This document shows positions 2 to 27,832 of a stretch of 33,415 nt of DNA, one piece after another. A program made the translations under genes and the position numbers. This stretch comes from Anaerolineae bacterium. Its GTDB lineage: Bacteria > Chloroflexota > Anaerolineae > Epilineales > Epilineaceae. The notes below the pieces were generated by a model. It was not told the DNA's origin and ran no database searches. It saw only the letters and a program-made list of their open reading frames with translations. The first letter of the stretch is position 1, and the number at the start of each line of letters is the position of its first letter. The stretch spans positions 1 to 33,415 of the forward strand of contig JAJCYU010000251.1 in the NCBI GenBank assembly GCA_029262755.1, read 5' to 3'.

Positions 2-871
2 GTCGCGCGTACGATTGAACGGCTCCTTGCCATGGACGATGCTCCCGAGCGGCAGGTGCAGGTGGCCATCGATTTCGTCGCACCGGAAATCGACGAGAAC
101 ATTACGGCCAAGGAACTCGGCATCGAGACGCTGCTGCGCGAAGAGACCAGCTACTACCGGGGCAGCTCGCCCGACCGCGTCCACAATGTGGCGCTGGCTG
201 CATCCAAGTTCGACGGCGTGCTCATCGCGCCGGACGCCGTGTTCTCCTTCAACGACACCGTGGGGGATATCTCGGAGGAAGAGGGCTACAAAAAGACCCT
301 GATCATCCTGGACGGCGCCACGGCGGATGGGGTCGGCGGCGGCACATGCCAGGTCTCGACAACCCTCTACCGGAGCGCGTTCTGGACGGGTCTGCCGATC
401 GTCGAGCGCCTCGCGCACGGCTACCGCGTAGCGTACTACGAGCAGAACTCCCCGACCGGCATGGACGCCACGGTGTACGGGCCGACCATCGACCTCAAGT
501 TCAAGAACGACTCCGGTGGCTGGCTGCTGATCGAGACCGAAGCCGACAGTGCGGATCGAGCGCTTACCTTCCGGGTCTATGGCCCGCGCCTGGACCGCGT
601 GGTCGAGATGGAGGGCCCGGTCGTGCATACCCGCGTGCCACCGCCGGCCCCTGCAGTCGTCGTGGATCCTGAGCTTCTGCCGGGCCAGTCTCGCGAGGAC
701 GAACTGGAACGGGAGGGACTTTCGGTCACCGTGGAGCGCATCATCCGCCACAACGGTGAAGAACTGCGCGACGTGTTTCGCAGCTCCTATCGTCCGACCG
801 GCGCCCTTACGGCGATCGGCCCTACGCCGGAGCCGCAGCCCGGCGAGCCTCCCGCACCGGCGCTTCCCTAG
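2..871 (+). CDS. VanW family protein with C-terminal G5-like region (5'-truncated)
   Basis: Frame is open from nt 2. VanW motifs: R-x-x-N (RVHNVALAA), FSFNDTVG, GGGTCQVSTTLY, ERLAHGYRVAYY, GMDATV, DLKFKN. A G5-like beta segment and Pro-rich tail follow. Confidence 0.9.
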   Translation, partial: VARTIERLLAMDDAPERQVQVAIDFVAPEIDENITAKELGIETLLREETSYYRGSSPDRVHNVALAASKFDGVLIAPDAVFSFNDTVGDISEEEGYKKTLIILDGATADGVGGGTCQVSTTLYRSAFWTGLPIVERLAHGYRVAYYEQNSPTGMDATVYGPTIDLKFKNDSGGWLLIETEADSADRALTFRVYGPRLDRVVEMEGPVVHTRVPPPAPAVVVDPELLPGQSREDELEREGLSVTVERIIRHNGEELRDVFRSSYRPTGALTAIGPTPEPQPGEPPAPALP

Positions 872-1120
872 CAGGCCGTTGGGACGCCTTGGCACCGTGC
901 ACGAGGACGTGGCATGGCTGCTTCGTTCCATCGACTCTCGGCCTGCGTCTCGCCCTTACGCCCGTTCCTGACACGGTCCCGCGAAGCGCATGGCCGCTCG
1001 AACTCCGCGTCGATGGCGGGCCGAAGCGTGCAGACACGTTGGTTCCTTTGCCCGCTACGAGTTGCACGTTTCGAGCTGCCCGCATCGAGTTCGGAGCTAT
1101 GACGTGGCATCGCTTTTACT

Positions 1121-2356
1121 GTGCAGCGACGCCGATCGCTGAATCGTGCTCGTGAGCGCGTGAACGGCCCTGCGACCACGCCGGGGCCGTCGGCTCGCCT
1201 CCGCGTCGCGTGGGTCGTGGGCGGCCTGCATGCGGGCCCAGACGATCCGTTTGCGCCGTATCTGGCCACGTCGCTACGCGGGCTCGCCAAGCACGCCGAG
1301 GTCGTCGCGTTTCCGCTGCGCTACCCGGTGGCGCAAGTGCCCTATTCGCTCTTCGGAGCGCGCGTGGAACCGCAGTCGATCGGCGACGTGCGCCTGCGCG
1401 AAAGCCCAGCACTTTGGCGGAGCGTGGTTCGATCCATTGTGCAGGCTCACCGGCGCCGGCCCTTCGACCTGGTTCACGCGGTGCAGGCAGCCGAACCGGG
1501 CTTTGTGGCGTCCCTTGCTGCGGCGCGGATCGGACGGCCACTCGTAGCCCAAGTACTCGGGGGCGAGTTGGTCGATCTCGCGGACATCGGCTTCGGTGGC
1601 AAGCAGGACCGTGCGGGCCGATGGTTCGTGGCCTCCACGCTCCGTCGAGCGGCCCGCGTGGTCGTGCTCAGCGACGAGAGTGCCGGTGCCGCCAGGGCCC
1701 GTTTAGGTTCCGCGCGGGCCGATCGGATCCGGATCGCGCCGCTACCGGTTGAGATGGACCGCTTCCGCCCGCGATTGCTCCGAACGCGTCGCGCCCAGCT
1801 GCGCGCGGGAGAGGCTCCGTGTCGGCTTCTTGCGGTGGCCAACTTACTGCCCGTGAAGGATCACGCAACGCTCCTTCGCGCATTCGCGCAACTCGCCGCG
1901 CTTCGACCCGACGTGCGCCTCCATCTGGTCGGTGGTGGGCCGACGCTAGCGGCCCTGCGGCGCCAGGCGAGCGAGCTCGGGGTAGCGGAGCGTGTTCAAT
2001 GGTGGGGCCAAGTGCCGCATGCCGCGGTTCACGTGGCCTTCGCGGGGGCAGACGCCTACGTGTCCTCCAGCCGGCACGAGGCGCAGGGTGTCGCCCTATT
2101 GGAAGCGGCGTCGTGTGGGCTCCCGGTCGCCGCGACCGCCGTCGGCGCGGCGCGGGAGCTGCCGCCGAGCCTCGTGCACCGCTGCCGCCCGGGCAGCGTG
2201 GAAGGCCTTCTCGCCGCCATGGCCGACGCGCTCCAGAGCGCGCCCGCGCCGCGCGCTTCGCGCCGTGCGGTTCGGGATCTCCTGCGACCTAGGTGGAGTG
2301 AAGCTGCGTGCGCACAGCGAATGCTCGCGGTGTGGCGCGAGATCGCGGCATCATAG
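1121..2356 (+). CDS. Glycosyltransferase family 4 (GT-B)
   Basis: VANLLPVKDHATLL, LVGGGP, SSRHEAQGVALLEAASCGLPVAATAVG (EX7E motif). Start uncertain (GTG 1121 or slightly downstream). Confidence 0.88.
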   Translation: MQRRRSLNRARERVNGPATTPGPSARLRVAWVVGGLHAGPDDPFAPYLATSLRGLAKHAEVVAFPLRYPVAQVPYSLFGARVEPQSIGDVRLRESPALWRSVVRSIVQAHRRRPFDLVHAVQAAEPGFVASLAAARIGRPLVAQVLGGELVDLADIGFGGKQDRAGRWFVASTLRRAARVVVLSDESAGAARARLGSARADRIRIAPLPVEMDRFRPRLLRTRRAQLRAGEAPCRLLAVANLLPVKDHATLLRAFAQLAALRPDVRLHLVGGGPTLAALRRQASELGVAERVQWWGQVPHAAVHVAFAGADAYVSSSRHEAQGVALLEAASCGLPVAATAVGAARELPPSLVHRCRPGSVEGLLAAMADALQSAPAPRASRRAVRDLLRPRWSEAACAQRMLAVWREIAAS

Positions 2357-5117: not shown

Positions 5118-5428
5118 GGGGATCCCGACCTGACTAGCGAGACAAGGCAGAGGTCGCGGATCGAACGCGCTAGCGTGAACTCTGGCTGTGTGTTTCCGGG
5201 CATGTCAACCGCGGATTTTGGAAAGCTGCCGGCCGGTCTCCAAGGTGGAAGGCAGCGGCGCCCCGTTCGCCGCGGTCAGCTGCGACCGGTCGATCCCCTT
5301 TTCCTGCGCAGCGAGTCTATGGATGTAGGGCTGCGCAGGGAGCAGTGCTGTGCCGCCCCGCGGCGCGACGTCTGTGTCCGAATCGAATGCAGCAAGCACG
5401 ATGTCCACGACCAAGCGAGCGACAATTC

Positions 5429-7660
5429 ATGAGGCACCGCTGCATAGACGAGTCACCACGCCGCCGATCCAAGATCGGCATTCAACGTCGCCTGCCCCCG
5501 TGCCGGTTGTCCGGTCTCGTGGCGTTTCTCGTGGCTGGAATGGGCGCCTTCGCGGCCCTCTCGCCCCATCCGACAACCGCGCGGGCGGCCGGCGATGGCC
5601 TCGTACTCGAATTCGAGCACGGAGGCGCCCTGAGCGCGTTGGCCACCGACGGATCGTGGGCCTACCTCGTCCAGGGCAGTCGCGTCCACGTGGTCTCGCC
5701 GTCAAACCCGGGGGGCTCGCCGCTTGCAAGCAGCAAGCCGGACTCCCTGTCCAGAGTGAAGGCGGCTGTCGCGCGCGACGGAACGGTCGCGTTAGGCGGT
5801 GACGGGTTGCGCATCTTCCATCACCGGGGGACCGATCTTCGCATCACTGATCAATGGCTGCCGCGGCACGGCATCGAGGCGCTGGCCTGGGCTGGTGACA
5901 GGCTGTGGGTGCTCGGCGACGACGGTCAGGCCCACCGGTTGCGCATCGACGAGGAGGGCACGATCGTGCGCCGTGACCGCTGGGCGCCGACCGCGCCGAC
6001 GTTGGAAACGACAGCGCAGATCTCGGCGCTCGCCCCGTCGCCGAACGGCGAGCTGTTGTTCGCACTTGTGCAGTGGGTCGGTGAAACACAACCCTTCCGC
6101 GACCCACCGGTTCGCTCGGCGGAGATTCTCCAGATCGAGGTCACCTCGGGCACGAACCGGGTGATCGCACGCGCGCCCGCCCAGCGATGGCCTCGGCCGG
6201 GTCTGCTCGCCGGGGACACGTGGGCCATGCTCTATGCGCGCTCCGGCTTCGGCGCGACGCCACAAGCGCAGCTGTTTACGAAAGGACCCGCGACGGGACT
6301 CTCCAGCCAGCTCTTGAGATGGGCGGGGGAGTACGGCACCCAGTCGCTGGCCATGATGGACGACGTGCTATGGCGATTGGACCAGAGCGGACAGCTCTAT
6401 CGACACGCGCGTCTAAGCGCTGTTCAATCACAACCCGTTCCGACGCCCTCCTTTACGGGGGTCTCCGTGTTGGGCATCGGTGCGCGATTGGCCCTACTAA
6501 GCCCGGAGCAGATGTGGTGGCTCGAGGACGATGGTTCGGCCGCGCCCGACGTAGCCCTGGACACCCGCGAGATTGCCGAGGTGGCCGCGACGAAGCATGG
6601 CGCGTGGCTGCGTCGCGGAACCCGCGCGATGGACTTTGTACCCGCTACCGGCCCCGACGGCTGGCTCCTCCCCCCGCCGCACACCGGGCCGACGTACGTC
6701 TATCAACTCTTTGGGGCCGGCGAACGCGTTTATTCTCTTGCCAACGGCGTCGTAGAGATCTATGCCGACCGCAGCCGGGACCGTGGCCGGCTCGAACGCT
6801 TGGCCGGGCTCCCTCAAGCCGGCGACCACCGAACGAGCCTGCTGATGGACGCCGAAGGGGACCGGGTCGTCACCAAGGACTCGTCGGGCACGATCTGGCT
6901 GCAGCGCTCGACGGTCGATGGCCGCCCCGCGCAAGAGCTCTACATGCTGACAAGCGGCGACGTCATCGACGAGCACCTGGACGGCGACCTGCTGTGGCTC
7001 GCAATCACGTCGCGACGTACAACCCGGCTCGAAGGATTCGACATCGCAGGCGTGGGCATTACCGCACCCCGGCAAACGAGCCTTAGCCTGCCCGGCTCCA
7101 CAGCCATCAGCTTCGCCGTCGAGCGCGGGATCGCGCTCGTGGGCCGTGGGCCCATCCTCTCCGCGCTACGCGTCTCCGATCCGAGCCGGCCCAAGGAAGT
7201 CGATGTGCTCGACCTCCCGGGATCGATCGTTCACGTTACCGTGCAGGGACTGATTGCGTGGGTCTACTCCACGGGCTCCGCGTCGGACTATCTGAGCGCC
7301 ATCCAGATCGGCCATGGTGGATCCTTGCACGATCTCGGCACCGTTACGTTGCCGCTCGGAGCGACCGAGATCGCCCTCGCGGCCGACGCCGGCGGCGTGT
7401 GGCTCGTCGCAGATCGGGCGCTCCAACGCTACACCTTCGCAACGCCGCTCGATTCTTCCCCGACCGCCGACCCACGCCCGAGCTCGACGGCGCCGGCGTC
7501 GGCGACACCGACTTCGACCGCGACCGCGCCGGAGGCGACCGCGACGACGGCGCTCCCGACGGCAACGCGCACGCCCACAATGCACCGAGAATTGCGCGTG
7601 TTGCTGCCGTGGCTGGCCCGAGGTGGGGCGTCCGCGCTCGTTCGCTTCGGGACACCATAG
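5429..7660 (+). CDS. Secreted or surface protein, probable beta-propeller (LVIVD-like blades), Pro/Thr linker and C-terminal LPWLARG motif
   Basis: Hydrophobic signal-like segment LVAFLVAGMGAFAAL...ARA; repeated short beta strands (e.g. LRVSDPSRPKEV); TPT-rich linker. Start is uncertain. Confidence 0.62.
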   Translation: MRHRCIDESPRRRSKIGIQRRLPPCRLSGLVAFLVAGMGAFAALSPHPTTARAAGDGLVLEFEHGGALSALATDGSWAYLVQGSRVHVVSPSNPGGSPLASSKPDSLSRVKAAVARDGTVALGGDGLRIFHHRGTDLRITDQWLPRHGIEALAWAGDRLWVLGDDGQAHRLRIDEEGTIVRRDRWAPTAPTLETTAQISALAPSPNGELLFALVQWVGETQPFRDPPVRSAEILQIEVTSGTNRVIARAPAQRWPRPGLLAGDTWAMLYARSGFGATPQAQLFTKGPATGLSSQLLRWAGEYGTQSLAMMDDVLWRLDQSGQLYRHARLSAVQSQPVPTPSFTGVSVLGIGARLALLSPEQMWWLEDDGSAAPDVALDTREIAEVAATKHGAWLRRGTRAMDFVPATGPDGWLLPPPHTGPTYVYQLFGAGERVYSLANGVVEIYADRSRDRGRLERLAGLPQAGDHRTSLLMDAEGDRVVTKDSSGTIWLQRSTVDGRPAQELYMLTSGDVIDEHLDGDLLWLAITSRRTTRLEGFDIAGVGITAPRQTSLSLPGSTAISFAVERGIALVGRGPILSALRVSDPSRPKEVDVLDLPGSIVHVTVQGLIAWVYSTGSASDYLSAIQIGHGGSLHDLGTVTLPLGATEIALAADAGGVWLVADRALQRYTFATPLDSSPTADPRPSSTAPASATPTSTATAPEATATTALPTATRTPTMHRELRVLLPWLARGGASALVRFGTP

Positions 7661-7984: not shown

Positions 7985-10702
7985 CTACGCTTTCAACTGC
8001 GCCTGCAACCACGCGACGATTGCCAAAGCGTCCGTGCGCAAGGCCCCGTTCTCGGTGACGCCAGTCCTTGATTGCACGCGACACCACGCGTCGCCCGGAC
8101 GCAGGGTTCGCCCCGACTGCGGCGCGAGCACGAGCCACGGTGCTGTGGCCGGCGGCGAGGGTTCGTCGAGCCTAAAACCGGCCTGTTCGCAGGCGTAGGC
8201 GCCATGACCGTCCACCACGGGCCCGTACCAGCCCGATGCCAGCCGCGGAGTGCGCGCACGCCCAGACCCGACGTGGTGAAGCACCAACTGCGCTCCTACA
8301 AGCGGCATTTCGTGGGCGTCGAGTGACGCGCCATCCGCGTCCGGATCGCGCAGGGAGACGACGTGCCGGGCGAGCATCGGCAACCGTCCGGCAAACAGTT
8401 CCAATTGGGTGTAGGCCGAGACGGATGCGACGAGCCGCGGGTTCACCTCGATCACCCAGTAGGCTCCATCTACGTCCCGTAGCAAATCGACGCCGAAGAA
8501 CCCCCGGTAGCCTTCCGCGCCAAGTCCGGTCCCAATGCGCCGCGCAAGCTCGATTCCAGGCGCCGTGTCGAGTGCTTGCTGCCGGGTGGCGCTCCAATCT
8601 TGACCGCACGAACCGAGGGATTGCAGCGTGAGCGCGGGATGCCCCGTGATTTGTAGGAACGGAGCGCCGACGACGACCCCCCGCGCGGTCACGCACGCGT
8701 TGACCGTCCACGTCTCGCCTTCCAGGCGACGGCTGACGCGCGCGGTCCGGCCGCGCAGGGCATCGCGTGCGGACACGAATAGCGGCTCGTCGTCCACCGG
8801 AAAGGTCTTCAGCCCCGCGTAGCCGCTGGGTCCCTGTACAACCAGACGAGGCCCGAGGAGCGAGCTCAACTGCGCATACGAGCTTGTCGCCAGCTCCACG
8901 GCCGCAGAGGGTGGCAGCGGAAGGCCGAGCTCCGCGCCAATCTCGAGAAAGGCAAGCTTGTTCTCCCACCGGCGAGCGAGCTTCGCCGGCGAAGCAATCA
9001 GGGGCCAGCCCATGTCCCGGCAGCGCCGCTCGATGGCATGCGAACTCTTGAAGACCAGGATTGCTGGCGCAGGAGCCTCGGCCAAGAACGCTTCGGTGGC
9101 GGGGGCCTGTAAGACATCCAGCGCGTTACGGCCTGCCGGGCGACGTGTTGCGGGCGGTGAGTTGGACCCCGACGAGGTAGACGGCGATGGGGGAGACGGC
9201 GTCGAAGCATTTGGAGGGTGCGTGCCGTCGCGCGCGGCAGGGCTCGCCGCGGCGGTGGCATTGGGTGCAGCAAGAGGCGCGGCCTCCGGGTCCGCGCTGG
9301 GCGGCGGATCGGCCTCCAGCGCGAGCACCGCGTGTCCCGCCGATCGCAGCAACCGGCCCGCCGGTGTGTCATCCAAGACCGCGAAACGCATGCTCGGCAG
9401 CAACGACTCCAAACCGATCCCATAGTGCGTGTCGGGTCCGACGAAGCTAAGACCGGCAACCTGCCGCGATGCCCACGCGGAGAAGGAAGCAACGTTCCGC
9501 ACAACACCGGCATCCGAAGGCTCCGCGCCGGGCTCATTACGTTCGTCGCCACTCCCGAAGGAGGGCACGGATGAGTCTTGAGAGGCTTGCGGCCACGCGT
9601 CCATCGCCTGCAGGGCAGCGTCCACGTCCTCGACGAAACGTTCGCTCAGTTCGGCCATGCCCTGTACTTGGTCAATAGCGCGAGCGTGATCGTGCGACTC
9701 GTCTTGCGAATCGCCTGCGCGGCGCGGCACATCGACACGTCGGGCGCCGGTGATCACGACCGCGACGTTGCGCAGCCCACGTTCGCGCGCGGCCCGGCCG
9801 GCTGCGGCAAGTGCGGCCGCGCCTTCGAGCGACGAATCGATGCCGGCGTCCAAGAGCAGACGTCCGGCGGCTTCGGCTTCCGCGTCGGTGATGACCCAGC
9901 CCGATCCACCCGTGGAACGCAAGAAGCGCTTCGCTTCCCCGACCCTGCGCGTCTTGCGTGCGCCGAGCTGCCCGACGCGGCTCTGTCGTTGGGCCGGTTC
10001 GAGCACCCGCTTATCGAACTCGCCGGCGACCGGCTGGGCCCCTGCGCCCTGCACGGCGTGGAGCTGCGGTATCGCGAACGTCGGGGCGTGTTCGGGTCTG
10101 TTCGCTGCCGACCGAACCATGGCGGCGAATTCCGGGCGTTGCCAGGCGCGGCCGATGGCCACCAAGGAGGTTGCGCTCGAGACGAACGTGAAGACCGCCT
10201 CGACGGGCGGCTCGATGGCGAGAAGCTCCCAGCCGAGCGTCTGAAACCCTTCCGGCGCCGCTGGATCCGTGGACGGTCGCAGGTTGTGTAAACCCCGTGC
10301 AGCCGCGACATCGCGGGCGAGCGTCAGCGCGCGCTCGGAAACTAGCAACAAGGCGCCTTCCGCCGTGATGCGCGCTCGTTTCGCCGGCGAGGTCCGGGGC
10401 GATACGAACGCCGCCACCGGGATGCCGGCGGCCCGCCCGTAGCGCGCCGTGGCGATCGCGGCGTTACCGGAGGACGAAATGACAAGCCACCGCGGCGGCG
10501 GATCGGCACTGGCCAACAGCGAAACCTGATAGGCCGCGCCACGGTCCTTGTGCGATCCCGTCGGGTTGCGGTCTTCCCGCTTGAGCACGAGCCGCGCGAG
10601 GCCGAGTTGCGCCGCAATCGCGGGCACATCCTCCGCCGGTGTATCTCCCTCTCCGAGGCTGAGACGGCGGCCGGGTGGCGGCGCATGCGCAAACCCCTGC
10701 AC
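7985..10702 (-). CDS. Fusion protein: threonine-synthase-like fold-type II PLP enzyme (N-terminal) plus ATP-grasp ligase (C-terminal)
   Basis: N-terminal: LSLGEGDTP, KREDRNPTGSHKDRG (PLP Lys52), SSGNAA, VVITG (about 9746-10702). C-terminal: ENKLAF..GLPLPP, VVQGPSGYAG, YRGFFGVDLL, WVIEVNPR (about 7988-9500). One uninterrupted 905-aa frame. Confidence 0.85.
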   Translation of the reverse strand: MQGFAHAPPPGRRLSLGEGDTPAEDVPAIAAQLGLARLVLKREDRNPTGSHKDRGAAYQVSLLASADPPPRWLVISSSGNAAIATARYGRAAGIPVAAFVSPRTSPAKRARITAEGALLLVSERALTLARDVAAARGLHNLRPSTDPAAPEGFQTLGWELLAIEPPVEAVFTFVSSATSLVAIGRAWQRPEFAAMVRSAANRPEHAPTFAIPQLHAVQGAGAQPVAGEFDKRVLEPAQRQSRVGQLGARKTRRVGEAKRFLRSTGGSGWVITDAEAEAAGRLLLDAGIDSSLEGAAALAAAGRAARERGLRNVAVVITGARRVDVPRRAGDSQDESHDHARAIDQVQGMAELSERFVEDVDAALQAMDAWPQASQDSSVPSFGSGDERNEPGAEPSDAGVVRNVASFSAWASRQVAGLSFVGPDTHYGIGLESLLPSMRFAVLDDTPAGRLLRSAGHAVLALEADPPPSADPEAAPLAAPNATAAASPAARDGTHPPNASTPSPPSPSTSSGSNSPPATRRPAGRNALDVLQAPATEAFLAEAPAPAILVFKSSHAIERRCRDMGWPLIASPAKLARRWENKLAFLEIGAELGLPLPPSAAVELATSSYAQLSSLLGPRLVVQGPSGYAGLKTFPVDDEPLFVSARDALRGRTARVSRRLEGETWTVNACVTARGVVVGAPFLQITGHPALTLQSLGSCGQDWSATRQQALDTAPGIELARRIGTGLGAEGYRGFFGVDLLRDVDGAYWVIEVNPRLVASVSAYTQLELFAGRLPMLARHVVSLRDPDADGASLDAHEMPLVGAQLVLHHVGSGRARTPRLASGWYGPVVDGHGAYACEQAGFRLDEPSPPATAPWLVLAPQSGRTLRPGDAWCRVQSRTGVTENGALRTDALAIVAWLQAQLKA

Positions 10703-10740: not shown

Positions 10741-11187
10741 CTACTTCTCCTCCTCCTCGAAGAGGTCGAGCAATAGCGGCTCGCGTTGGATGACCTCAAG
10801 CTCCGCACCGCAGTGGGCGCAGTACAGCACCTCACCCAGCTCGACGTCGCCGGCAACCGGCACGCCTTCCCCGCAGGCGGGACACGGTTGGTCCGCCCCG
10901 GTGGGCACAGCGGGCACCTCGGTTCCAGAAGAAACGGGCGGTGCTTCGAACGAAGCGGCAGTAGCCGTCGAATCGGCTGTTCCGGATCCATCCCCCGTCG
11001 CGATGGACGTAGTCGGGTGGCTGGAAGAGGTCGGAGTGTCGGCTGGAGAGTGACCGGTTTTCGAGGGTGTCTCGTGCGTCACGGGATCCTCCGTGTTTCG
11101 GGTGGCGGCGGGACCGGCCGGATTGGGTTTGGTGCGGGGTCGCTGATGACCCTTGCGGAAGAACAGGCGGATCCAAGTGGGGATCAT
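10741..11187 (-). CDS. LysW-like zinc-ribbon carrier protein with long disordered N-terminal extension and non-canonical EEEEK C-terminus
   Basis: CPACG-x-ELGEVLYCAHCGAELEV..EPLLL resembles Thermus LysW (CPECG...ELGELVVCEDCGAELEV...DPLRL, recalled from memory). GGAGG precedes ATG 11187; a second in-frame GGAGG-GTG start lies at 11082. Confidence 0.8.
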   Translation of the reverse strand: MIPTWIRLFFRKGHQRPRTKPNPAGPAATRNTEDPVTHETPSKTGHSPADTPTSSSHPTTSIATGDGSGTADSTATAASFEAPPVSSGTEVPAVPTGADQPCPACGEGVPVAGDVELGEVLYCAHCGAELEVIQREPLLLDLFEEEEK

Positions 11188-11188
11188 C

Positions 11189-12871
11189 TCAATCCTCCGC
11201 GTCATGGGCGACGGCGCTTGAGGCGGTAGCTTCGCGCAACAGAGCTCGAAAGCCGCGCTCGCCACCACCGTCTACGTAGAAACGTCGAAAGAAGTACGGG
11301 CATGCCGGCGATAGCAACACGATCTGTCCCGGACGCGCCTTGTCGACAACACTGCGAATCGCCGGCGGCAGATCCTCGAATCGATCGATGGCCGGGGCAA
11401 CGACACGATCATGATTGCTGCCCGACTTCGCGATCAACGCCTCCACCGCCGCTGCTATACGCGCACCGCCTGCCCCAGGCAACACGACCAATCGTACGAC
11501 ACGTTTGTGGATCTCCGCCGCGAGGTCGGCCAGCGCGAGCCCCTTGTCGTCTCCGCCTACGATCAGCACGATCCGGTCGCCCAGAGCGCGCAGCGCGGCG
11601 ATGGTGGCCTGGGGGGTCGTCGCGTTCAGGTCGTCGTAGTAGGCCACATCGTCGGCGCCCCACACGAACTGGATGCGATGGCGCAGACCCCGATAGGCGC
11701 GCAGTCCTGCATCAATCGCGCGCAGATCCGCGCCCGCGAGGCGCGACGCGAGCGCCGCGGCGAGCACGTTGCTCTCGTTATGATCGCCCGGTAAGCGGGG
11801 CAAGGCCGGAAGGGTCAGCCGTTCTACGGGCCCGACCGGACTGGCGCGCAGATGGAGCACGCCGTCCACGAGCCACGCCGCGCAATGCGCCTGCCGGCCC
11901 GTGTCATCGCCGTGCCCGTCGATCGTTTCGCGCGCCGCTATCCCTATCGCGCCATCGTCTTCCCCGTCAACGGTGCTCATCCCGTGTCCTTCGTCCGAAG
12001 CGCCGACCTCACCGGGCGTGCCGGAACCGGTCCGGCGCGGCGCCGCGCGAGCGAACAACAGCGCGTGCCCGGGCGCATGGTTCGCGAACCCGGCGGTGAC
12101 GGCATCGTCCGCGTTCAGCACCGCGAAGCCGGAGGCCGGCTGGGCGTCCAGGAGACGGCGCTTCACGGCGGCATAGGCATCGAAGGAGTCGGCGTGCTCG
12201 TCCAAGTGGTTGGGCAGCACGTTGGTCACGACCGCGACGTCCGCACCCTGTCCGGGGGCCAGTTGAAGTCCGCGCAGATGGCGGTTGCTGACCTCGAGAA
12301 CAAGCCAGTCCGTGGCGGACATCTGGTCCATTCGGTCCAAAACCTGCACGCTGCGTCGCTCGTTGCCTGCGTACCAAACGCGCAGCTTCGCCTGCAGCAA
12401 CATGGACTCGACGAGCCGACTCGTCGTGGACTTACCGTTGCTGCCGGTCACCGCAAGGATCCGCGCCGGCGCCAAGCCGAAGTAGAGGTCCATGATGCCG
12501 CGAAGGGGAAGTCCGGCATCGATCAGGGGGGCCAACGCCGCCACGTTACGCGGATACAGGTACCAGGCCTGTCCGGCGAAGATCACCTCCGCGTCCTCGA
12601 TCCCCTCCAAGTAGGCATTGCCCAAACGGCGGGTGAGCGGCAGGCTGGACAACTCCGTCCATAGGCTCGCTCGCTGCGCCTTCGGCAGTCCCACGTGGGA
12701 GCGCGAAAACGCACGTCGGAGCGGTTCGCCTTCTTCGACATCGTGAACCGTGATATCGCGGGCGCCGCGCTCCCATAGGAATCGGGTCACGGCCGTGCCC
12801 TCGCTGCCAGCGAGCCCAACCACGTGGATGCGGCGGCCAAGCAGGTCGCCCAGGGTGTCGGCGTTGATCAC
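11189..12871 (-). CDS. MurD-like Mur ligase (divergent)
   Basis: VVGLAGSEG, VTGSNGKSTT (P-loop), TNVLPNHLDEH, GDHNESN, GLRHRIQFV, LIVGGDDKG, VLLSPAC. GTG start overlaps the NlpC/P60 stop (GTGA). Confidence 0.88.
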   Translation of the reverse strand: MINADTLGDLLGRRIHVVGLAGSEGTAVTRFLWERGARDITVHDVEEGEPLRRAFSRSHVGLPKAQRASLWTELSSLPLTRRLGNAYLEGIEDAEVIFAGQAWYLYPRNVAALAPLIDAGLPLRGIMDLYFGLAPARILAVTGSNGKSTTSRLVESMLLQAKLRVWYAGNERRSVQVLDRMDQMSATDWLVLEVSNRHLRGLQLAPGQGADVAVVTNVLPNHLDEHADSFDAYAAVKRRLLDAQPASGFAVLNADDAVTAGFANHAPGHALLFARAAPRRTGSGTPGEVGASDEGHGMSTVDGEDDGAIGIAARETIDGHGDDTGRQAHCAAWLVDGVLHLRASPVGPVERLTLPALPRLPGDHNESNVLAAALASRLAGADLRAIDAGLRAYRGLRHRIQFVWGADDVAYYDDLNATTPQATIAALRALGDRIVLIVGGDDKGLALADLAAEIHKRVVRLVVLPGAGGARIAAAVEALIAKSGSNHDRVVAPAIDRFEDLPPAIRSVVDKARPGQIVLLSPACPYFFRRFYVDGGGERGFRALLREATASSAVAHDAED

Positions 12872-13950
12872 GAGCTGGTGTGGCCGCTCGGATTGCCATT
12901 CACGCGACCGAGCCCCGGCTCCCCTCCCGATGAGACCGGAGCCGCGTCGGTGTCACGCGGCAAGGGCCGCAGACCCTCCGGAAAGCGACGGGCGGCGCGC
13001 AGGCCGTAGCGGGCAAGAAAGTCGTCCATGGGCTCGACGACGACGGCAGCATGGTCAAGTCCAGCGTGGGCCACCGAAAGGGTCCCACGTGGCGGCTCGT
13101 CCTGCGGTGCGTGGCCCTCGGAGAGGCCGACAAGAGCCGCTCCGACCCACGGCGCCGGGGGCAGCACGAGCGCGGTATGCGAGACGCCGCGCTCGAGATG
13201 GTGCAGCAGGAGCAAATCGCCCATGGCCCAGGACTCGCGCGGCACCCGGGCGCCGAAGCGCGTCTGATCGCTCGAATGGCGCGGGAGCCCAATGCCCTGG
13301 GCTGCGCGGAATACCTTCTGCGTCAGCGCGGAACAATCGATGCCGCTGCGCAGGCGGCCCCCGAGACGATACGGGGAGCCAAGCCAAGGGGCGAGCGCAA
13401 CCAACCAATCCGTCGCGTCCGCGGGGCGGGCGCTTCCCGCCCATCCGTCTCGCCATTCGGCTACGCTGGGCGGACGATCCGCGCTTGGATCGAGATCGGT
13501 CACGCTGGCGGCTTCACACCACCCGACGGTCCGATCCGCGAGCTCGACCGCGAGCCAGCCCGCCGAGGGCCAGAGCCGCCGAATGGGCGGCTCATCGGCC
13601 GACCACTGGGTGGCCAGGTCCCCGTTGGGCGTTGCGTGCACGTCCACGTGCGTTGCACGCGGCGCAATCCAGACGGCGTCGTCGAGTTCGGTCAGCGCGC
13701 GCACACGGACACGCGCCGCATCCGGCTCGTAGCCGCCGACGCGCAGACCGCTCGCCAACGACCGTTCCAGGGCCGCACGCTGAGACGGCACGAGCACGTC
13801 GCCCACAACCCAGGCGCCGCCGTGTCCGTCTGATTGCACGTCGAGCTCCGCCACGACCACCCCGTGTTGCTCCCGCCAGCGGGCGAGCAGATCGCGCAGG
13901 GTGTCGCGCACGTGGGCAATGAGGGCCGCTTCGTGCACGGTGGGCTCCAT
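12868..13950 (-). CDS. NlpC/P60 (C40) cysteine peptidase with SH3-like region, no evident signal peptide
   Basis: [34 protein letters not shown] and a later HAG give a Cys-His-His triad. [13 protein letters not shown] is SH3b-like. Start placed at ATG 13950 because the longer ORF runs across the acnA promoter and start. Confidence 0.85.
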
Positions 13951-17428: not shown

Positions 17429-20413
17429 ATGTTGTTCTCTGCCCCCTTGGCTCGCACCTTCGTGGTTGTCGGCGTCGTGGTGATCGCCCTGTCTGTATGG
17501 GGCGCTCCGTCCGCAGCGCAGCCTGCAGCGCCGTTTTCCTGGGTCTGGATCGAAGGGGAGGACGCGCAGCGGCATGATTTCAACGGCCACTCTTGGTACT
17601 GCTGTGACGGCGTCCGGGCCGACCTCCTATCACCCGGAATTCCGGAGCAACGGGACGGCGCCTGGCTGGCGCACTATGCGAACGACGGGCAGACCGCGAC
17701 GGCCTCGTGGGATGTGGACGTACCTACGAGCGCCTCGTACACCGTTTGGGCGCGCGTCTCAAGCTGGAACGTCGGCCTGTGGTGGCAGATGGACGGCCAG
17801 ACGCGGCGCGCACACGACGCCGCCGCGGACCCGCGCGAGTACCTGAACCTGCTCGAGCCGGGCCGAATCGACATCCGCTTTCTATCCTGGCAACGGCTGG
17901 GCGATACCGAGTTAGAGGGCGGCGCTCATCAACTAACCCTGGGGCTGGAAGGACATCCGAGCCGCAACGAGGGCCAAGAAGTGCATGGTGGCGTGGACGC
18001 CATCGTGCTGGTCGCCGCAGACGCGCTCTGGGCGCCTTCGGGCGCGATGCAGCCACCCACCGGCAACGAAGCAGCGCCGCAGCGCGATACTTGGTTCCCG
18101 CTCGTACCATCGGACGATCCGTTCTCGGATGCCTCCGTGACCGATGCCGGCGGATTGCTGCATGCGCCGGCCGGTCGACACGGAGCGCTTCGGCCAGACG
18201 GTCGCTCCTTCCGGTTTGAAGACGGCACGCCCGTGAAATTTTGGGGCGTCAACGCGCACCCGCCCGCCACGGAGGAGCTCGCCCAACGCCAGGCTCGTTG
18301 GTTGGTCAAGCAGGGTGTCAACCTCGTCCGCCTCCACCCGGTGCAATCGGTCGTCGGCCTGCTCGAACGCGACCCGGCTACCGGAAACCGGCGGCTGAAT
18401 CCCGAGCACCTCGACAAGCTCGATCGCTGGTTCGCGGTGCTCAAGGAACACGGCATCTACATGACGTGGTCGCCCGTGTATCCGCACATCATCACCGCCG
18501 ATGACGGCTATCCGGTCAACCTCTACAACGAGCTGCAGGATGCCAACACGTGGAATATGCCTCCGGGGACTAGCGGCAAGTCGAGCTCCGGAGTCGTGAA
18601 CGTAATGCGACCCCTTCAAGATGCCGAATGGGCGTGGCTAAAGCCGCTGCTCGAGCACGTCAACCCCTACACGGAGCTGCGCTACGTCGACGATCCGGCG
18701 TTGGCACTCCTAGAGACCCACAACGAGGACTCGATCTTCTGGCATTGGCCGCTCAACAGCTTGCAGGGCGGCGAGTTGCCGGGCCACCTGGCCGCGCTGC
18801 AGGGCATGTGGGCCACGTGGCTCCAAGATCGCTACGCAAGCGACGCCGCGCTGCTGGCCGCTTGGGGACCACCCGGCAGTGGCAGCCGACCGGGCGACGG
18901 CTTGGGCAACGATACGATGGCGATCTACGGCGCCTGGGAGTTCGAAGCAGACGGCCCGCCGCAACATCCGATGGAACAGGCTCGTTTGGGCGATTGGATC
19001 CGCTTCCTTGCCGAGACGCAGGCAGGCTACTTCGCGCGACGCGAAGCGGAGGTACGTGCGCTCGGCTACCGCGGCGTCACTGTGACCACCGCCTGGATGT
19101 CCGGCGGACCCGCTGCTCACCTGGCCAACGTTTGGACCGACGACGTGGCCGAGGCGATCGATCGGCACAGCTACTTCGGAGGTGGCGAGGGCGGGCACAG
19201 CGTGCGGCCGGGCACGGTCAACAACGGTTCACACCTCGGCGCACCGGGCAGCGGCATCTTGCAACGCGGCCTCGAGCAGGTGGAGGACAAGCCCTTCCTG
19301 CTCTCGGAATGGACGCAGTCGCCGCCCAACCAATGGAAGGCGGAGATCGCTCCTTTGTTCGCGTTCTACGGCATGGGTTTGCACGGCTGGGATGCGTCGA
19401 TGCACTTCTCCGCCGATCAAGACGGACGTATGGGCGGTGGATGGCCCGACGAGAATAGCTACGTCTCCGAAACTCCCCACTACGCGGGCCAGTTTCCGGT
19501 TCTCGCGCGCAGCGTCCACCGCGGCGACTTCGACGAAGGGCCGCTCGCTGCCGCACGGCGCTTGGCCGTCGACGACATTTTCCGCGGCGTGGACGCGTTG
19601 ACCCGGGACACGCCATCGGGCGGCTGGGCCGGCGATGCTCCCGGAGGAGCCCTGGCGACGCCGAGAGAGGTCTTCGCGATCGGCCGCACCACGCTCGATA
19701 TCGGCGACGACCTTCCGCGCAGCGAGCGCTTGGACTGGTCGAGCTATTGGGACGAGTCCGCGCGAAGCATCCGCAGCGCAACCGATCAGCTGGAGTGGGA
19801 CTACGGACGCCGCGTGGTCCAGGCGCGTAGCCCGCGCACCCAGGGCGTCATCGGCTGGGCAGGCGCCGACGGTGGGGAAACGTGGTCGCTGCCGGCGCTC
19901 GAGGTCACGGTCCGGACACCCTTCGTGAGCCTGTTGCTGACGAGCCTCGATGATCGCGTGCTTGTAGAGAGCGGACATATCCTGGTCACGGCCCTCGCGC
20001 GCGACCAGCAGACAGGGGCCCGCTACAGCGCGGACGGCTCCCGGCTCGAGGCTCTGGGCGGCCCGCCGCTGCTACTGGAGCCCGTGCAAGCGGATCTCCG
20101 CTTCACCGGTCCGTCCATCACCTCAGCCCATCGCCTTGACATCCACGGTGTGCCCATAGGCGAACCGATTGAACATGACGCGGACTCCGTGACCCTCGAC
20201 GGCCGGTGGGCGAGCTATCAATACGAGATCCGTCGTGACGTGGCGCCGACGGAATCGACGCCGTCCGCATCCCCGGTCCCGAGCCCCATCCCTTCACGCG
20301 AGCCGACCCGTGGTCCGGCGCCCACGGCTTTAGCGACGCAACCGCCCACGGGCGACATGCCTCCGCTGGCTCTGCCTTGGCTTGCTCGAGGCTCGGGGGC
20401 GGCGCTGCGCTAA
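17429..20413 (+). CDS. Secreted glycoside hydrolase, clan GH-A-like TIM barrel (GH5/GH42-like), with N-terminal CBM-like domain and C-terminal Pro/Thr linker plus LPWLARG
   Basis: Signal peptide (..VVVGVVVIALSVWGAPSAAQ); FWGVN, GVNLVRLH, LKEHGIY, HVNPYT..YVDDPA..ETHNE (candidate acid/base), KPFLLSEW (candidate nucleophile). GGAG RBS at 17418-17421. Confidence 0.75.
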   Translation: MLFSAPLARTFVVVGVVVIALSVWGAPSAAQPAAPFSWVWIEGEDAQRHDFNGHSWYCCDGVRADLLSPGIPEQRDGAWLAHYANDGQTATASWDVDVPTSASYTVWARVSSWNVGLWWQMDGQTRRAHDAAADPREYLNLLEPGRIDIRFLSWQRLGDTELEGGAHQLTLGLEGHPSRNEGQEVHGGVDAIVLVAADALWAPSGAMQPPTGNEAAPQRDTWFPLVPSDDPFSDASVTDAGGLLHAPAGRHGALRPDGRSFRFEDGTPVKFWGVNAHPPATEELAQRQARWLVKQGVNLVRLHPVQSVVGLLERDPATGNRRLNPEHLDKLDRWFAVLKEHGIYMTWSPVYPHIITADDGYPVNLYNELQDANTWNMPPGTSGKSSSGVVNVMRPLQDAEWAWLKPLLEHVNPYTELRYVDDPALALLETHNEDSIFWHWPLNSLQGGELPGHLAALQGMWATWLQDRYASDAALLAAWGPPGSGSRPGDGLGNDTMAIYGAWEFEADGPPQHPMEQARLGDWIRFLAETQAGYFARREAEVRALGYRGVTVTTAWMSGGPAAHLANVWTDDVAEAIDRHSYFGGGEGGHSVRPGTVNNGSHLGAPGSGILQRGLEQVEDKPFLLSEWTQSPPNQWKAEIAPLFAFYGMGLHGWDASMHFSADQDGRMGGGWPDENSYVSETPHYAGQFPVLARSVHRGDFDEGPLAAARRLAVDDIFRGVDALTRDTPSGGWAGDAPGGALATPREVFAIGRTTLDIGDDLPRSERLDWSSYWDESARSIRSATDQLEWDYGRRVVQARSPRTQGVIGWAGADGGETWSLPALEVTVRTPFVSLLLTSLDDRVLVESGHILVTALARDQQTGARYSADGSRLEALGGPPLLLEPVQADLRFTGPSITSAHRLDIHGVPIGEPIEHDADSVTLDGRWASYQYEIRRDVAPTESTPSASPVPSPIPSREPTRGPAPTALATQPPTGDMPPLALPWLARGSGAALR

Positions 20414-21846: not shown

Positions 21847-24102
21847 CTACGGCTTGCCGGGCGAATCGGGCAGGTCGGGCACGGCGGCAGACGTTGGGAG
21901 TGCGATCTCGATCTGTCGTGCAATCCACGGCATATCCCGGCGGTCGAGCACGCCGGGTGTTGGTCCCTCGCTCTGCGCTCCAGCAGGCATCGTGGCGTCG
22001 AGTTGATCCGGCGCTAGCGGCGCCTGCTGGCTCCACGCAAGCGGGGAGGCGAGACCGAGGCGAGCGCTGATATGTTGCAGATCGTCCAGATCAACGCCGC
22101 CGTCGCGGTCCAAGTCGGTGCAAGGCACGTCGAGTGGGCCGCTCCGCCGGAACCTCGCGGCGACGGCGGAGAGGTCGCCGACGTCGATGCGTCCATCCGC
22201 GTTTACATCGCCCCGGGTCAGGATCGCAGGCGCGATCTGCATACGCTGGCCGGCGCGCAGCGGGATGAGGCCGCCGTCGATGGACAAGCCGCAGGCCATC
22301 GTTGCGGTGATCGGATAGCGGTCGGGAGGCAAGCGGTCGAAGAAGTAGCGACCCGTCGGACCGGTCACGGTGCTGAGCGGTCCGAGGCGAACCACAGCAC
22401 CGCGCACAGGACCTTGGTCGTCAAACAACACGCCGCTGGCGCTCGCGGTATCGCGCGGACAAGGAGCGCTCTTCACACGGGCAGCAACGACCTCCAGCCG
22501 GCGGCATGCGTTCTCGCCCATCGTCACGCCGTCGATCTCGACGAAGCCGCCCAGCATCGCGTCGAGACGTTGGTTGCGTGACGTGACGGTCAGTCCGGGC
22601 GTGCCGTCGCATGCGAGGAGTTGGTATCCGTCGCCGTGACAGTTGTGCAGAGAAGGCACGTATTGCAGCCAACCCGAGGTTGTAAGCTGCGCACGGTTGA
22701 CGGGCGGCAAGGGCAAGCTCGCGAGTAGCAGGCGCCGCGGTTGGCTCACGCCCTCGACAGTGGGGCGATCGGGGAACGAATCCCACACGGCGGTCACGGC
22801 GCCGAGGCCGTCGAGCGCGACGGCCTGACGCCGCGCGTCGATCAGGGCGGGCGCACGGTCGAGGCGCAATGGCTCGTCCGCGAGTCGCTCATCAACCCAG
22901 GCGCCGTATAGGCGTGCGCCCGGATCCCTCGTCTCCCCCCAAGCCACGAACGCGCGGCCGCCGCCACCGCCCAACGCAATGTCCAGCAGCGCACCGCGCG
23001 CCGGGCGATAGCGAATGCGGTCGAGCTCCCACGGGCCGGCATCGTCCGGCCGGCTCGCAACCCGCACCGTTCCGCCATCGCCCTCGTCCACCCATGCCGC
23101 GACGAGGCGCCCTGTGCCGTCCGCCACCACATGCGGTGACCGCTGCAAACCGCCCACGGTTCGCGCTAGAGATTCGTCGGGCCACCACGCATCTCCGCGG
23201 CCGACGTGACTTCCTGCGGGTAGTCGGGCGGCAAAGATTCCGCTGCGCCGGCCACGCGTATCTCGCCAGATCGCGTGAAGATCGCCCGACACGTTCATGG
23301 CCAGGTCGATATCGCGTTGGTCGCCCGGCGCGTGCGCAGCGTGAACAAGAACGGACGGTGTCCACCGACCATCGGGTTCGCGCATAGCGTGGCGTAGATC
23401 GGCGTTTTCACCGCGCAAGTCCGTCCAGGCCGCATGCACCCTCCCCCATGGATCGGCGACCAACGCGGGCTTCCACTGAGGCGCGGCTACGGCGTCGACA
23501 TATTCGGGCTTCGAGAACGAGGATTCGTTGGTTCGCATCACCGCATGAGCAATGGCCGCCCGCTCTAGGAGCGGCAGCTCGAAGAGCACGTGCACGGCGC
23601 CGTCGCTGTCGAGCACAACGACGGGCGCCGCAGCCGGACCGGAGACGACCGTGATGGGTGGCAGCCACGTCCGCGCCCATGGCCGGTGCGCATAGCGAAT
23701 AGAAGCGCCTGGCGCATTCGAGGCAGCCGTCCCGGCCGACCGCTCCTGCCACACGGCGTGCAAGCCGCCCGCATGATCGACCCAGAGATCAACCTCTTCC
23801 TGCCCCCGCCCAGACGCGGACTCGACCAGTGGTTGCGGGAACGACCATCGAGAACTGTCTTGGGCCAGGACTACGGCGCGCTCGTCTGCTTGGAGCGAAC
23901 CGAACAGTGTCGCGGCAAACGAGGCAGCGGCGACCCAGGACCAGAGCGCTCGAGACATGGGGCCGCGTCGCCGCGCCGCGCCGACTCGCGATCGCGAACG
24001 TGACCGTGAATGGGAACGGGATGGGGTACGGGAACGTGAACGGGCTCGACCGGTCATGACCTGGACCGAAGCCAGGATGGGAACCCGCTCTGGATTCGAC
24101 AC
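21847..24102 (-). CDS. Secreted multidomain protein: propeller-like repeats, carboxypeptidase-regulatory-like domain, type I dockerin-like domain
   Basis: Repeats D-x-x-G-x-[LV]-H-[AV]-x-W-x-D; TVTGPTGRYFFDRLPPDRYPITA; paired Ca-binding loops GDVNADGRIDVGD and DLDRDGGVDLDD. GGAGG-5nt-GTG start at 24102 (alternative ATG 23958). Confidence 0.72.
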   Translation of the reverse strand: MSNPERVPILASVQVMTGRARSRSRTPSRSHSRSRSRSRVGAARRRGPMSRALWSWVAAASFAATLFGSLQADERAVVLAQDSSRWSFPQPLVESASGRGQEEVDLWVDHAGGLHAVWQERSAGTAASNAPGASIRYAHRPWARTWLPPITVVSGPAAAPVVVLDSDGAVHVLFELPLLERAAIAHAVMRTNESSFSKPEYVDAVAAPQWKPALVADPWGRVHAAWTDLRGENADLRHAMREPDGRWTPSVLVHAAHAPGDQRDIDLAMNVSGDLHAIWRDTRGRRSGIFAARLPAGSHVGRGDAWWPDESLARTVGGLQRSPHVVADGTGRLVAAWVDEGDGGTVRVASRPDDAGPWELDRIRYRPARGALLDIALGGGGGRAFVAWGETRDPGARLYGAWVDERLADEPLRLDRAPALIDARRQAVALDGLGAVTAVWDSFPDRPTVEGVSQPRRLLLASLPLPPVNRAQLTTSGWLQYVPSLHNCHGDGYQLLACDGTPGLTVTSRNQRLDAMLGGFVEIDGVTMGENACRRLEVVAARVKSAPCPRDTASASGVLFDDQGPVRGAVVRLGPLSTVTGPTGRYFFDRLPPDRYPITATMACGLSIDGGLIPLRAGQRMQIAPAILTRGDVNADGRIDVGDLSAVAARFRRSGPLDVPCTDLDRDGGVDLDDLQHISARLGLASPLAWSQQAPLAPDQLDATMPAGAQSEGPTPGVLDRRDMPWIARQIEIALPTSAAVPDLPDSPGKP
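23982..24048 (-). repeat. Degenerate hexanucleotide repeat encoding an Arg-Ser tract
   Basis: Minus strand CGTTCA-CGTTCC-CGTACC-CCATCC-CGTTCC-CATTCA-CGGTCA-CGTTCG-CGATCG encodes RSRSRTPSRSHSRSRSRSR. Confidence 0.7.
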
Positions 24103-24226
24103 GAAGACCTCCGTGTAGGACATCGGCGAACGCGTATGCTGGCGCAACGTCCTGGCTCAGGTGCGATTCGTGCGGATAGATGGCACGACGTTGTGGGTCT
24201 GCGTGCACCAAAGATGGAGCGAGCCT

Positions 24227-27786: not shown

Positions 27787-27832
27787 CAGCCGCGTTCCAC
27801 GTTGGGCGAATGCTGCACGCGATCCGCCCCGA

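Follow-up and report, generated by a model that had tools for sequence, protein, structure and literature searches.

A lysine-ended LysW-like carrier locked to a variant MurD in Anaerolineae, and a possible protein-bound route of D-glutamate into peptidoglycan

LysW is a small zinc-ribbon protein on which an amino acid is held by its amine, joined to the γ-carboxyl of the terminal glutamate of an EDWGE tail. In peptidoglycan, D-glutamate (D-Glu) at position 2 of the stem peptide is regarded as universal. The known routes to D-Glu are glutamate racemase, D-amino-acid transaminase, reportedly a moonlighting DapF in Chlamydia, and the MurD2/MurL pair. MurD2/MurL of Xanthomonas combines a variant MurD with an ATP-driven one-way epimerization in bacteria without D-Glu genes, and MurL is said to have no conserved domain (PMC8788868). 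Here we analyze a 33,415-nucleotide stretch of an Anaerolineae bacterium (assembly GCA_029262755.1, contig JAJCYU010000251.1, positions 1 to 33,415), which we call the window. On its minus strand, a carrier gene (10741..11187) encodes a LysW-like zinc ribbon that ends in lysine, and next to it lies the gene of a divergent MurD-type ligase, called MurD* below.

In lineages under at least four phylum labels, we found no glutamate racemase match above the family cut-off and no canonical MurD, and a variant MurD is locked to a module that contains the Lys-ended LysW-like protein. With somewhat less than even confidence, we propose that this module supplies D-Glu to stem-peptide position 2. Glu would be held on the terminal Lys of the carrier, racemized by a pyridoxal 5′-phosphate (PLP) enzyme, used by MurD* and cut free by a peptidase.

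The lysine-ended tail and its conservation

The carrier lies in a minus-strand open frame of 175 aa (10741..11268), whose C-terminal end is ...DQPCPACGEGVPVAGDVELGEVLYCAHCGAELEVIQREPLLLDLFEEEEK (= ...CPACGEGVPVAGDVELGEVLYCAHCGAELEVIQREPLLLDLFEEEEK), followed by a stop codon at 10741-10743. An earlier note on this DNA, made from the letters alone, had described a LysW-like fold with a non-canonical LDLFEEEEK-stop tail at 10741-10884. The translation bears out the tail, with F-E-E-E-E-K at 10744..10761. The fold stood up as well: PF21344 (Zn_ribbon_LysW) matches residues 129-172 of the frame (E 5.9e-12, 45.5 bits against a cut-off of 27), the globular zinc-ribbon domain with both its CxxC pairs covers 10753..10884, and the ELGE..C..CGAELEV..P pattern is present. 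The ribbon cysteines are invariant across the carrier alignment.

Performing a phmmer search with the last 60 residues of the carrier against 1.84 billion cluster representatives, we obtained 181 matches at E <= 0.001 and examined the best 150. Directly after the ribbon, 39 of these best 150 (of 181) representatives end in K; a canonical DWGE-type end is found in 15 of the same best 150. Among the 39 lysine-ended tails, the last residue is K in 39/39, the −2 residue is E in 37 and G in two, the −3 residue is E in 35, and the −6 residue is F in 25 and Y in five. Since G can stand at −2 while the Lys is invariant, the Lys, not the last Glu, is indicated as the working group. Judged by these sequences, the EEK-ended ribbons are a separate and widespread subfamily, in which the terminal Lys is the sole invariant residue of the tail.

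The loci of 11 relatives were fetched via the downstream gene, and three of them end before the place of the carrier. A ribbon open reading frame (ORF) was found at the neighbouring place in 8/11, with a FEEEEK end in seven and FYEDEEK in one. Thus the terminal EEK, which the earlier note had proposed to check by aligning homologs, is conserved and not variable (39 representatives, eight relatives' loci). The frameshift hiding an EDWGE end that it had also considered did not appear, and no EDWGE ending is encoded downstream within the window. We rejected a frameshift or an assembly artefact as the origin of the tail, since the tail is kept in those eight loci and 39 representatives.

These data bear on whether the protein is an ordinary LysW or ArgW, serving lysine or arginine biosynthesis with a drifted tail. 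It matches the LysW Pfam family, and automatic cluster names (ESM Atlas) call its relatives LysW. However, of four testable LysW-defining features it shows only the ribbon fold: its scores with the curated models fall short, its end is not EDWGE, and its neighbours are not those of the pathway. It scores under both curated NCBIfam LysW cut-offs (NF041070, 33.2 against 75; TIGR01206, 28.7 against 53.2). No LysX/Z/Y/J/K-type genes (kinase, dehydrogenase, class III aminotransferase, M20 peptidase) were seen in the window and 10 annotated loci. The EEK tail is conserved in the 39 representatives rather than drifted, and the relatives have separate ribbon matches in 56-90-aa ORFs, whose tails do not align to the EEK end. 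The carrier gene is outside any lysine or arginine pathway, and we find an ordinary LysW hardly credible.

The span given in the earlier note does cover the ribbon, the tail and the stop, but the gene is longer, likely up to 11187. We place the likely start at the ATG at 11187, giving 148 aa and a stop, because a GGAGGA ribosome-binding site (11193..11198, minus strand) stands five bases upstream and the N-terminal word is common with P0001, the best database relative. Both proteins open with M-x-x-x-WIRLFFRKGH. The stop codon of MurD* lies one base before this ATG. The predicted protein consists of the conserved N-terminal word (MIPTWIRLFFRKGH), ~95 aa of Pro/Thr/Ser-rich low complexity, the LysW-type ribbon and the acidic tail ending in Lys.

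Three further observations concern the ribbons. The part encoded at 10894-11187 (minus strand) is a 97-aa N-terminal extension; most relatives do without it and are 49-71 aa long. The extension opens with the hydrophobic/basic word common to P0001, and it may act as a helix that seeks the membrane, carried on a long tether. A second LysW-like ribbon is encoded in the window's genome (L002, G000:C358, 663-1037, minus strand; PF21344 E 4.1e-6); its tail is ...DDDDWGDDDDWDDDDDEGDEDSD, and it adjoins a response-regulator-like ORF and is not within any lysine cluster. Ribbons with long acidic tails are numerous among the phmmer matches, which also include some proteins with two ribbons (P0006, P0038, P0068).

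The variant MurD and its module

Scanning one genome per species with a DNA pattern built solely on the motif of the carrier itself, we obtained 31 loci. At least four of the 31 genomes are relatives already counted, as judged by identical coordinates. The loci are labelled Anaerolineae, Caldilineae, Ardenticatenales, 'Deltaproteobacteria'/Myxococcota, Pseudomonadota-labelled metagenome-assembled genomes (MAGs), CSSED10-310 and Planctomycetota. Using the window proteins in tblastn searches, we found MurD* beside the carrier in 30 of the 31 loci, the peptidase in 29, the PLP enzyme in 23, the ATP-grasp ligase in 18 and all four in 18; several of the incomplete loci stop at a contig edge. The carrier belongs to a five-part module: the carrier, an SH3b-like + NlpC/P60 peptidase, MurD*, a fold-type II PLP enzyme and an ATP-grasp ligase. 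In the window, the peptidase (12868-13950), MurD* (11189-12871), the carrier and a 905-aa PLP/ATP-grasp fusion (7985-10702) are packed head to tail on the minus strand.

MurD* (11189..12871, minus strand; 560 aa) carries Mur_ligase_M and Mur_ligase_C by Pfam, and among proteins of solved structure it comes closest to MurD (E 2.3e-28). Within the window's genome, MurD* ranks first among the MurD matches, with 201.4 bits to TIGR01087 against a cut-off of 211.95. The best TIGR01087 match was likewise MurD* in 5/5 near-complete relatives (207-241 bits) and in 5/5 genomes with other phylum labels (174-263 bits). It was the single match at E <= 1e-38 in 23/26 further carrier genomes, the other three having no match at that threshold. 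MurD* orthologs reach 157-263 bits, most matches starting at model position 75-84; the canonical MurDs of carrier-less genomes reach 317-465 bits over model positions 1-440.

The searched carrier genomes yielded no canonical MurD, and we therefore rejected the view of the ligase as an extra paralog beside a housekeeping MurD. The second match in G013 (~100 bits) is a MurC/MurB fusion, and similar second matches in other genomes (model positions 2-340) are taken to be MurC too. The cell-division cluster of G013, a 97% complete genome, contains mraY, ftsW, a 604-aa ORF without a family match, a murC-murB fusion (816 aa) and ftsA (L050, G013:C4:477000-495000). In this cluster murD is missing from its usual place, with none between mraY and ftsW. 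As the sole strong MurD homolog found, MurD* is needed for the ordinary reaction of UDP-N-acetylmuramoyl-L-alanine (UDP-MurNAc-L-Ala), and it probably adds D-Glu to this precursor.

Aligning 27 module ligases with five canonical sequences, we found G-x-x-G-K-(S/T)-T, E193, H222, T418 and K443 of GG.DKG invariant in all of them. MurD* differs from the canonical enzymes by an insert of ~10 aa in the N-terminal domain and by GNDR in place of GGNIGRP, with R172 in 27/27 against G in 5/5. A loop on the C-terminal side is two residues shorter (SPAC.YF--F in six MurD* rows against SPGGTSFDxF in the five canonical rows), and we take it to be the loop that holds D-Glu in E. coli MurD. In a quick tree the five canonical MurDs form one clan, with a Shimodaira-Hasegawa-like approximate likelihood ratio (SH-aLRT) support of 100. 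The window's MurD* also bears a low-complexity insert of ~80 aa (residues about 270-350, …RRTGSGTPGEVGASDEGHG…), which is absent from all 26 aligned orthologs.

We checked the carrier, MurD and D-Glu genes across related genomes. In the window's family, the full-tail carrier occurs in 10 relatives and the window's genome; the ATP-grasp half of the fusion occurs in the same ten relatives and in one further genome, G014, which is cut at a contig end. All 10 carrier-less relatives checked have a canonical MurD, nine with 317-400 bits over positions 1-440 and a contig-cut one with 237 bits. G002 is in the window's family as well but lacks the carrier; its MurD is canonical (366 bits), and it encodes a glutamate racemase with a score of 229 bits. 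MurD* also follows the carrier in a second, independent lineage, made up of G042 and its 30 nearest genomes. Only G042 and G041 possess the carrier and MurD* there, and in each of the remaining 29 the MurD is canonical (383-465 bits) and a full-tail carrier is lacking. The glutamate racemase model TIGR00067 found no match in 31/31 pattern-derived carrier genomes and none in the 10 carrier-bearing relatives. It scored above its cut-off in 17/30 carrier-less relatives, 17/29 genomes around G042 and 8/14 control genomes. The D-amino-acid transaminase model TIGR01121 was above cut-off in 0/5 near-complete relatives. The sole strong MurD homolog next door and the unfound glutamate racemase are the main context of the carrier, which goes beyond the earlier note.

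The peptidase (12868..13950, minus strand; 360 aa from the ATG at 13950; NLPC_P60, E 1.5e-14) has a stop that overlaps the start of MurD* (GTGA). It consists of a conserved N-terminal part of ~180 aa, including an SH3b-like domain, and an NlpC/P60 catalytic domain. A Cys-His-His triad, C206 (in D-C-S), H258 and H295, is invariant in the 18 sequences of an alignment that leaves aside L040 and L037 (stop codon in the sequence) and L030. By eye, no signal peptide is obvious on the peptidases, and their N-termini are hydrophilic, as in a cytoplasmic enzyme. A model with a predicted local distance difference test score (pLDDT) of 86.8 has as its best Foldseek matches 3h41 (9.3e-11), 3npf/4r0k and 2evr/2hbw, over 243-318 columns and both domains. 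They were deposited as putative γ-D-glutamyl-L-diamino-acid endopeptidases and dipeptidyl-peptidase VI (SH3b + NlpC/P60). By sequence, the match of the peptidase is confined to the catalytic part. The earlier remark that a Glu-Lys end echoes the stem peptide was apt, the carrier being locked to a MurD homolog and to a γ-D-Glu-L-diamino-acid-endopeptidase-like peptidase.

The other two enzymes are retained even where they are not linked to the carrier. The PLP enzyme and the ATP-grasp ligase are one protein in the window and its close relatives. In five genomes without an ATP-grasp gene at the locus, exactly one homolog was found elsewhere in 5/5, with a PLP gene directly upstream of it in 4/5. 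The carrier, the peptidase and MurD* thus remain close neighbours in genomes whose PLP and ATP-grasp genes sit elsewhere, as they would if the carrier were a non-covalent adaptor, regulator or substrate mimic. Its Glu-Lys end, which resembles Glu followed by a diamino acid, would then imitate the stem peptide and occupy or steer the peptidase, MurD* or MurE, for example by keeping the cytoplasmic peptidase off precursors. A cytoplasmic stem-peptide peptidase beside MurD would indeed require control. But this explanation leaves the constant co-occurrence of the ATP-grasp and PLP enzymes with the carrier unaccounted for, and every studied member of the LysW-fold family is a covalent carrier. We give it a small chance. 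Co-folds of the carrier, MurD* and the peptidase scored 0.49, 0.42 and 0.19, against 0.41 for a control in which MurD* had been replaced; they speak neither for nor against binding.

Additional domains are joined to the module in some lineages. In four Chloroflexota loci (L018, L026, L038, L043), a single open frame of 855-942 aa encodes both the peptidase and MurD*; no stop codon separates the two, and the frame looks like a natural peptidase-ligase fusion. In L015, L025, L028 and L041, outside Chloroflexota, the peptidase has a length of 560-600 aa, with a PF14336 domain (D-glutamate cyclase-like, C-terminal; E 1e-44 to 1e-58) on its N-terminal side. In L027, the gene directly upstream of the module peptidase (277-2328, plus strand) encodes a protein of 683 aa, with an Asp/Glu/hydantoin racemase domain at residues 13-228 and a C-terminal half that resembles a glycosyltransferase by eye. 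A racemase-ligase fusion is unsupported for this protein, in which Pfam sees the racemase domain only. It gave no tblastn match to the racemase-like contig of the window's genome.

Such domains matter for another explanation, in which the encoded C-terminal Lys, or Glu-Lys, is itself the substrate. It would be modified on the scaffold and then cut off as an unusual wall amino acid or dipeptide, much like the small molecules that are built on ribosomal peptide scaffolds. The invariant terminal residue and the ever-present peptidase agree with this, and the Lys amine could act as the nucleophile in a β-replacement by a fold-type II PLP enzyme. The scheme would, however, spend one protein per product in primary metabolism unless the Lys were restored, the linked ligase is of the MurD type and not MurE, and PF14336 and the racemase domain indicate Glu rather than Lys chemistry. 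We hold it to be highly improbable.

The PLP domain takes up residues 1-345 of the 905-aa fusion (9668..10702, minus strand; PALP, E 7.2e-47). It falls far under every NCBIfam cut-off, the best being threonine synthase (72.8 against 303). S-H-K, S-S-G-N and R142 are invariant in 22 orthologs, and the S-S-G-N loop is presumably of the serine racemase/dehydratase type. The ATP-grasp part (residues 400-905; 7985..9505, minus strand) matches ATP-grasp_3 weakly (19.1 against 23.2) and PRK06524 with 98.4 bits. It has a low-complexity loop between the first lobe and the remainder, and K153, E-N-K and E353-x-N355-x-R357 are invariant in 19 orthologs. For its model (pLDDT 87.3), the structural matches PurK, PylC, biotin carboxylase, PurD and PurT are tied (Z 22.6-25.9; PylC, 24.5). 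LysX and RimK are not among the matches listed (Foldseek; 50 VIA rows), which does not exclude kinship. By sequence, the sole solved match is a D-Ala-D-Ala ligase (E 0.0035), and no RimK-family match was seen in the Pfam and NCBIfam scans.

Among 65 neighbouring ORFs in 10 loci, Pfam revealed no further shared neighbour. Of the partners expected for pearlin-type ribosomal scaffold peptides, neither a tRNA-dependent peptide-aminoacyl ligase nor a radical SAM gene was found in the window module or as a conserved neighbour; the radical SAM genes of L027 and L028 are not common to the other loci. Elsewhere in the window, an aconitase gene diverges from the upstream end of the module, a VanW-like gene lies at 32-871 (plus strand), and a gene for a diadenylate cyclase (DAC) precedes one with a YbbR domain at 25463-27888 (minus strand). 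Three large ORFs, 766-994 aa in length, match no Pfam family (5345-7660 and 17429-20413, plus strand; 21847-24147, minus strand), and two of them end in Pro/Thr-rich stretches followed by LPWLARGG.

A proposed route through the terminal lysine

In the proposed D-Glu route, the ATP-grasp ligase would form a bond between the γ-carboxyl of L-Glu and the side-chain amine of the carrier's invariant last Lys, and the acidic ribbon with its EEEE stretch would serve as a docking handle, as in LysW. The PLP enzyme, fused or adjacent to the ligase, would racemize the tethered Glu, which is possible because its α-amine and α-carboxylate stay free. MurD* would use the D-form, either after release or while still tethered, and the peptidase would cut the γ-D-Glu-Lys link and free the carrier. 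To our reading, this is the simplest scheme that covers the invariant Lys, the PLP-ligase fusion, the γ-D-Glu-Lys-type peptidase, the D-Glu accessory domains, the replacement of MurD and the lack of a racemase match.

That MurD changes together with the carrier suggests that MurD* meets the carrier or its cargo directly. In a protein-bound version, MurD* would couple UDP-MurNAc-L-Ala onto D-Glu still tethered to the carrier, and the peptidase, recognizing L-Ala-γ-D-Glu-Lys, would release the finished UDP-MurNAc-dipeptide. The carrier would then be an amino-acyl carrier of reversed polarity, presenting an amine and not a carboxyl. This version would explain why MurD itself, and not just the D-Glu supply, is replaced wherever the carrier occurs; we nevertheless rate it as unlikely.

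The main reason for preferring the reversed polarity is that tethering of the LysW type takes up the substrate's amine and so rules out a reaction with PLP. With the polarity of LysW kept, the ATP-grasp ligase or MurD* would join the amine of an amino acid to a carboxyl of the carrier (the Lys α-carboxyl or a Glu side chain). The Lys would be a recognition element only, and the tethered amino acid would be processed and released for the MurD* step. The domain is LysW-like, and its tail offers four Glu side chains and a free α-carboxyl. The earlier note inferred that canonical attachment is not possible; the four internal Glu side chains are still available. LysX, RimK and the Mur ligases all activate the carboxyl of the larger substrate, and MurD-type enzymes add Glu to a C-terminal carboxyl, with MurD* adjoining the carrier in 30/31 loci. 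Yet an amine-tethered amino acid cannot form the PLP aldimine, and the PLP enzyme is constant and fused to the ligase. The last Glu is not invariant (G in 2/39), while the Lys is, and MurD*, as the sole strong MurD homolog, has the ordinary UDP-MurNAc-L-Ala reaction to perform. On balance, we doubt that the LysW polarity applies here.

Several points weigh against the proposed D-Glu route through the Lys side chain. The first concerns its chemistry. The loading site and the polarity are inferred, a covalent adduct appears in no experiment or model, and the carboxyl carrier suggested in the earlier note is likewise conjectural. Structurally similar peptidases cut γ-D-Glu from the α-amine of Lys or diaminopimelate (DAP) and not from a side-chain amine. 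The PLP enzyme is about equidistant from threonine synthase, dehydratases, cysteine synthase and serine racemase, so its reaction class cannot be read from the sequence. Nor can the reaction type of the ATP-grasp ligase be read, as PurK and biotin carboxylase match as well as PylC.

The second concerns the supply of D-Glu. The missing racemase is not specific to the module, as 13/30 carrier-less relatives also have no TIGR00067 match. The five of these 13 that were checked (G004, G017, G021, G029 and G036, all at least 91% complete and without the module) have a canonical MurD; other D-Glu sources must therefore exist in the class, and the carrier genomes could draw on them as well. A racemase-like ORF below the cut-off (TIGR00067, 99.7 against 146.65; Asp_Glu_race, E 2.5e-11) is found in the window's genome, at 1047-2825 on the minus strand of a 2.9-kb contig, next to lexA (L051, G000:C90). 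It could be a divergent MurI or come from a stray contig in the bin. The racemase-domain gene beside the module in L027 belongs to a genome without a TIGR00067 match. Class IV aminotransferases (106-158 bits) are present and could act on D-amino acids. Moreover, the genomes are for the most part incomplete bins from metagenomes, and those that are related cannot count as independent samples. In view of the racemase absence outside the module, the sub-cut-off racemase-like ORF and the class IV aminotransferases, the firm association is that of the carrier with MurD*. A missing racemase is necessary for the proposed D-Glu route, but it is not specific to it.

Comparison with known systems

The module could be a variant of carrier-protein-mediated amino-acid conversion and a new route of peptidoglycan synthesis. 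The protein-bound version, if true, would be a third route of D-Glu into the cell wall besides MurI/Dat and MurD2/MurL. If the module acts as proposed, it would extend carrier-mediated amino-acid chemistry beyond lysine/arginine synthesis and secondary metabolism into cell-wall synthesis, with a carrier that works via an amine rather than a carboxyl. It would also supply a piece that is missing from metabolic reconstructions of the abundant uncultured Chloroflexota and of other lineages known as MAGs, and warn annotators that module genes now pass as 'LysW' and 'MurD'. We found no paper, outside subscription journals, that names LysW together with MurD or describes this module.

The LysW carriers of Thermus and Sulfolobus, and of Streptomyces secondary metabolism, share with this protein the small zinc-ribbon fold family PF21344 and an acidic surface and tail. 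In both cases the genes lie among ATP-dependent ligases and a releasing hydrolase, and an amino acid is likely held on the protein during its conversion. The differences are in the tail, EDWGE in LysW and E-E-K here, and in the scores, which leave this carrier under the curated LysW cut-offs. The partner of LysW is LysX; the ATP-grasp ligase here belongs, among the matches listed, with the PurK/PylC/biotin-carboxylase class. Release is by an M20 metallopeptidase in LysW systems, and an NlpC/P60 cysteine peptidase stands in that place here. The module includes a PLP enzyme, which an amine-held substrate would disallow, and it is linked to MurD instead of lysine/arginine genes.

The SH3b + NlpC/P60 endopeptidases (3h41, 2evr, 2hbw; 3npf, 4r0k) have the same two-part architecture and Cys-His-His triad as the module peptidase. 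The latter differs in an extra conserved N-terminal helical/beta part, in a sequence match confined to the catalytic domain, and in its fusion to MurD* or to a D-Glu-cyclase-like domain in some lineages. The bond that it is proposed to cut, to a Lys side-chain amine on a protein, is different as well.

PylC (4ffl, 4ffr) is an ATP-grasp enzyme of the same structural class as the module ligase (Z 24.5, tied with PurK and others). It acylates a lysine side-chain amine with a D-amino acid, and this link of a D-amino acid carboxyl to the side-chain amine is the type of bond proposed here. However, PylC is only ~11% identical and acts on free lysine, and the tie with carboxylases permits no functional assignment. 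RimK, acting on ribosomal protein S6, is likewise an ATP-grasp enzyme that works on a Glu-rich C-terminal protein tail; in our module an invariant Lys caps the tail, and the ligase showed no RimK-family match in the scans made.

The MurD2/MurL system likewise occurs in bacteria that lack the known D-Glu genes, has a variant MurD annotated as MurD beside genes of unknown role, and drives the L-to-D conversion with ATP (PMC8788868). A single MurL stands there against a carrier, peptidase, PLP enzyme and ATP-grasp ligase here, and the hosts are the taxa of that paper against Chloroflexota, Myxococcota-labelled and other MAGs. All module neighbours in the window and the annotated loci carry other known domains, MurL itself not having been searched for. 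Epimerization of the MurD2/MurL type follows the MurD ligation, and the acylated amine at that stage precludes the use of PLP. MurD2/MurL is the nearest functional precedent for the module, reached with unrelated partner proteins.

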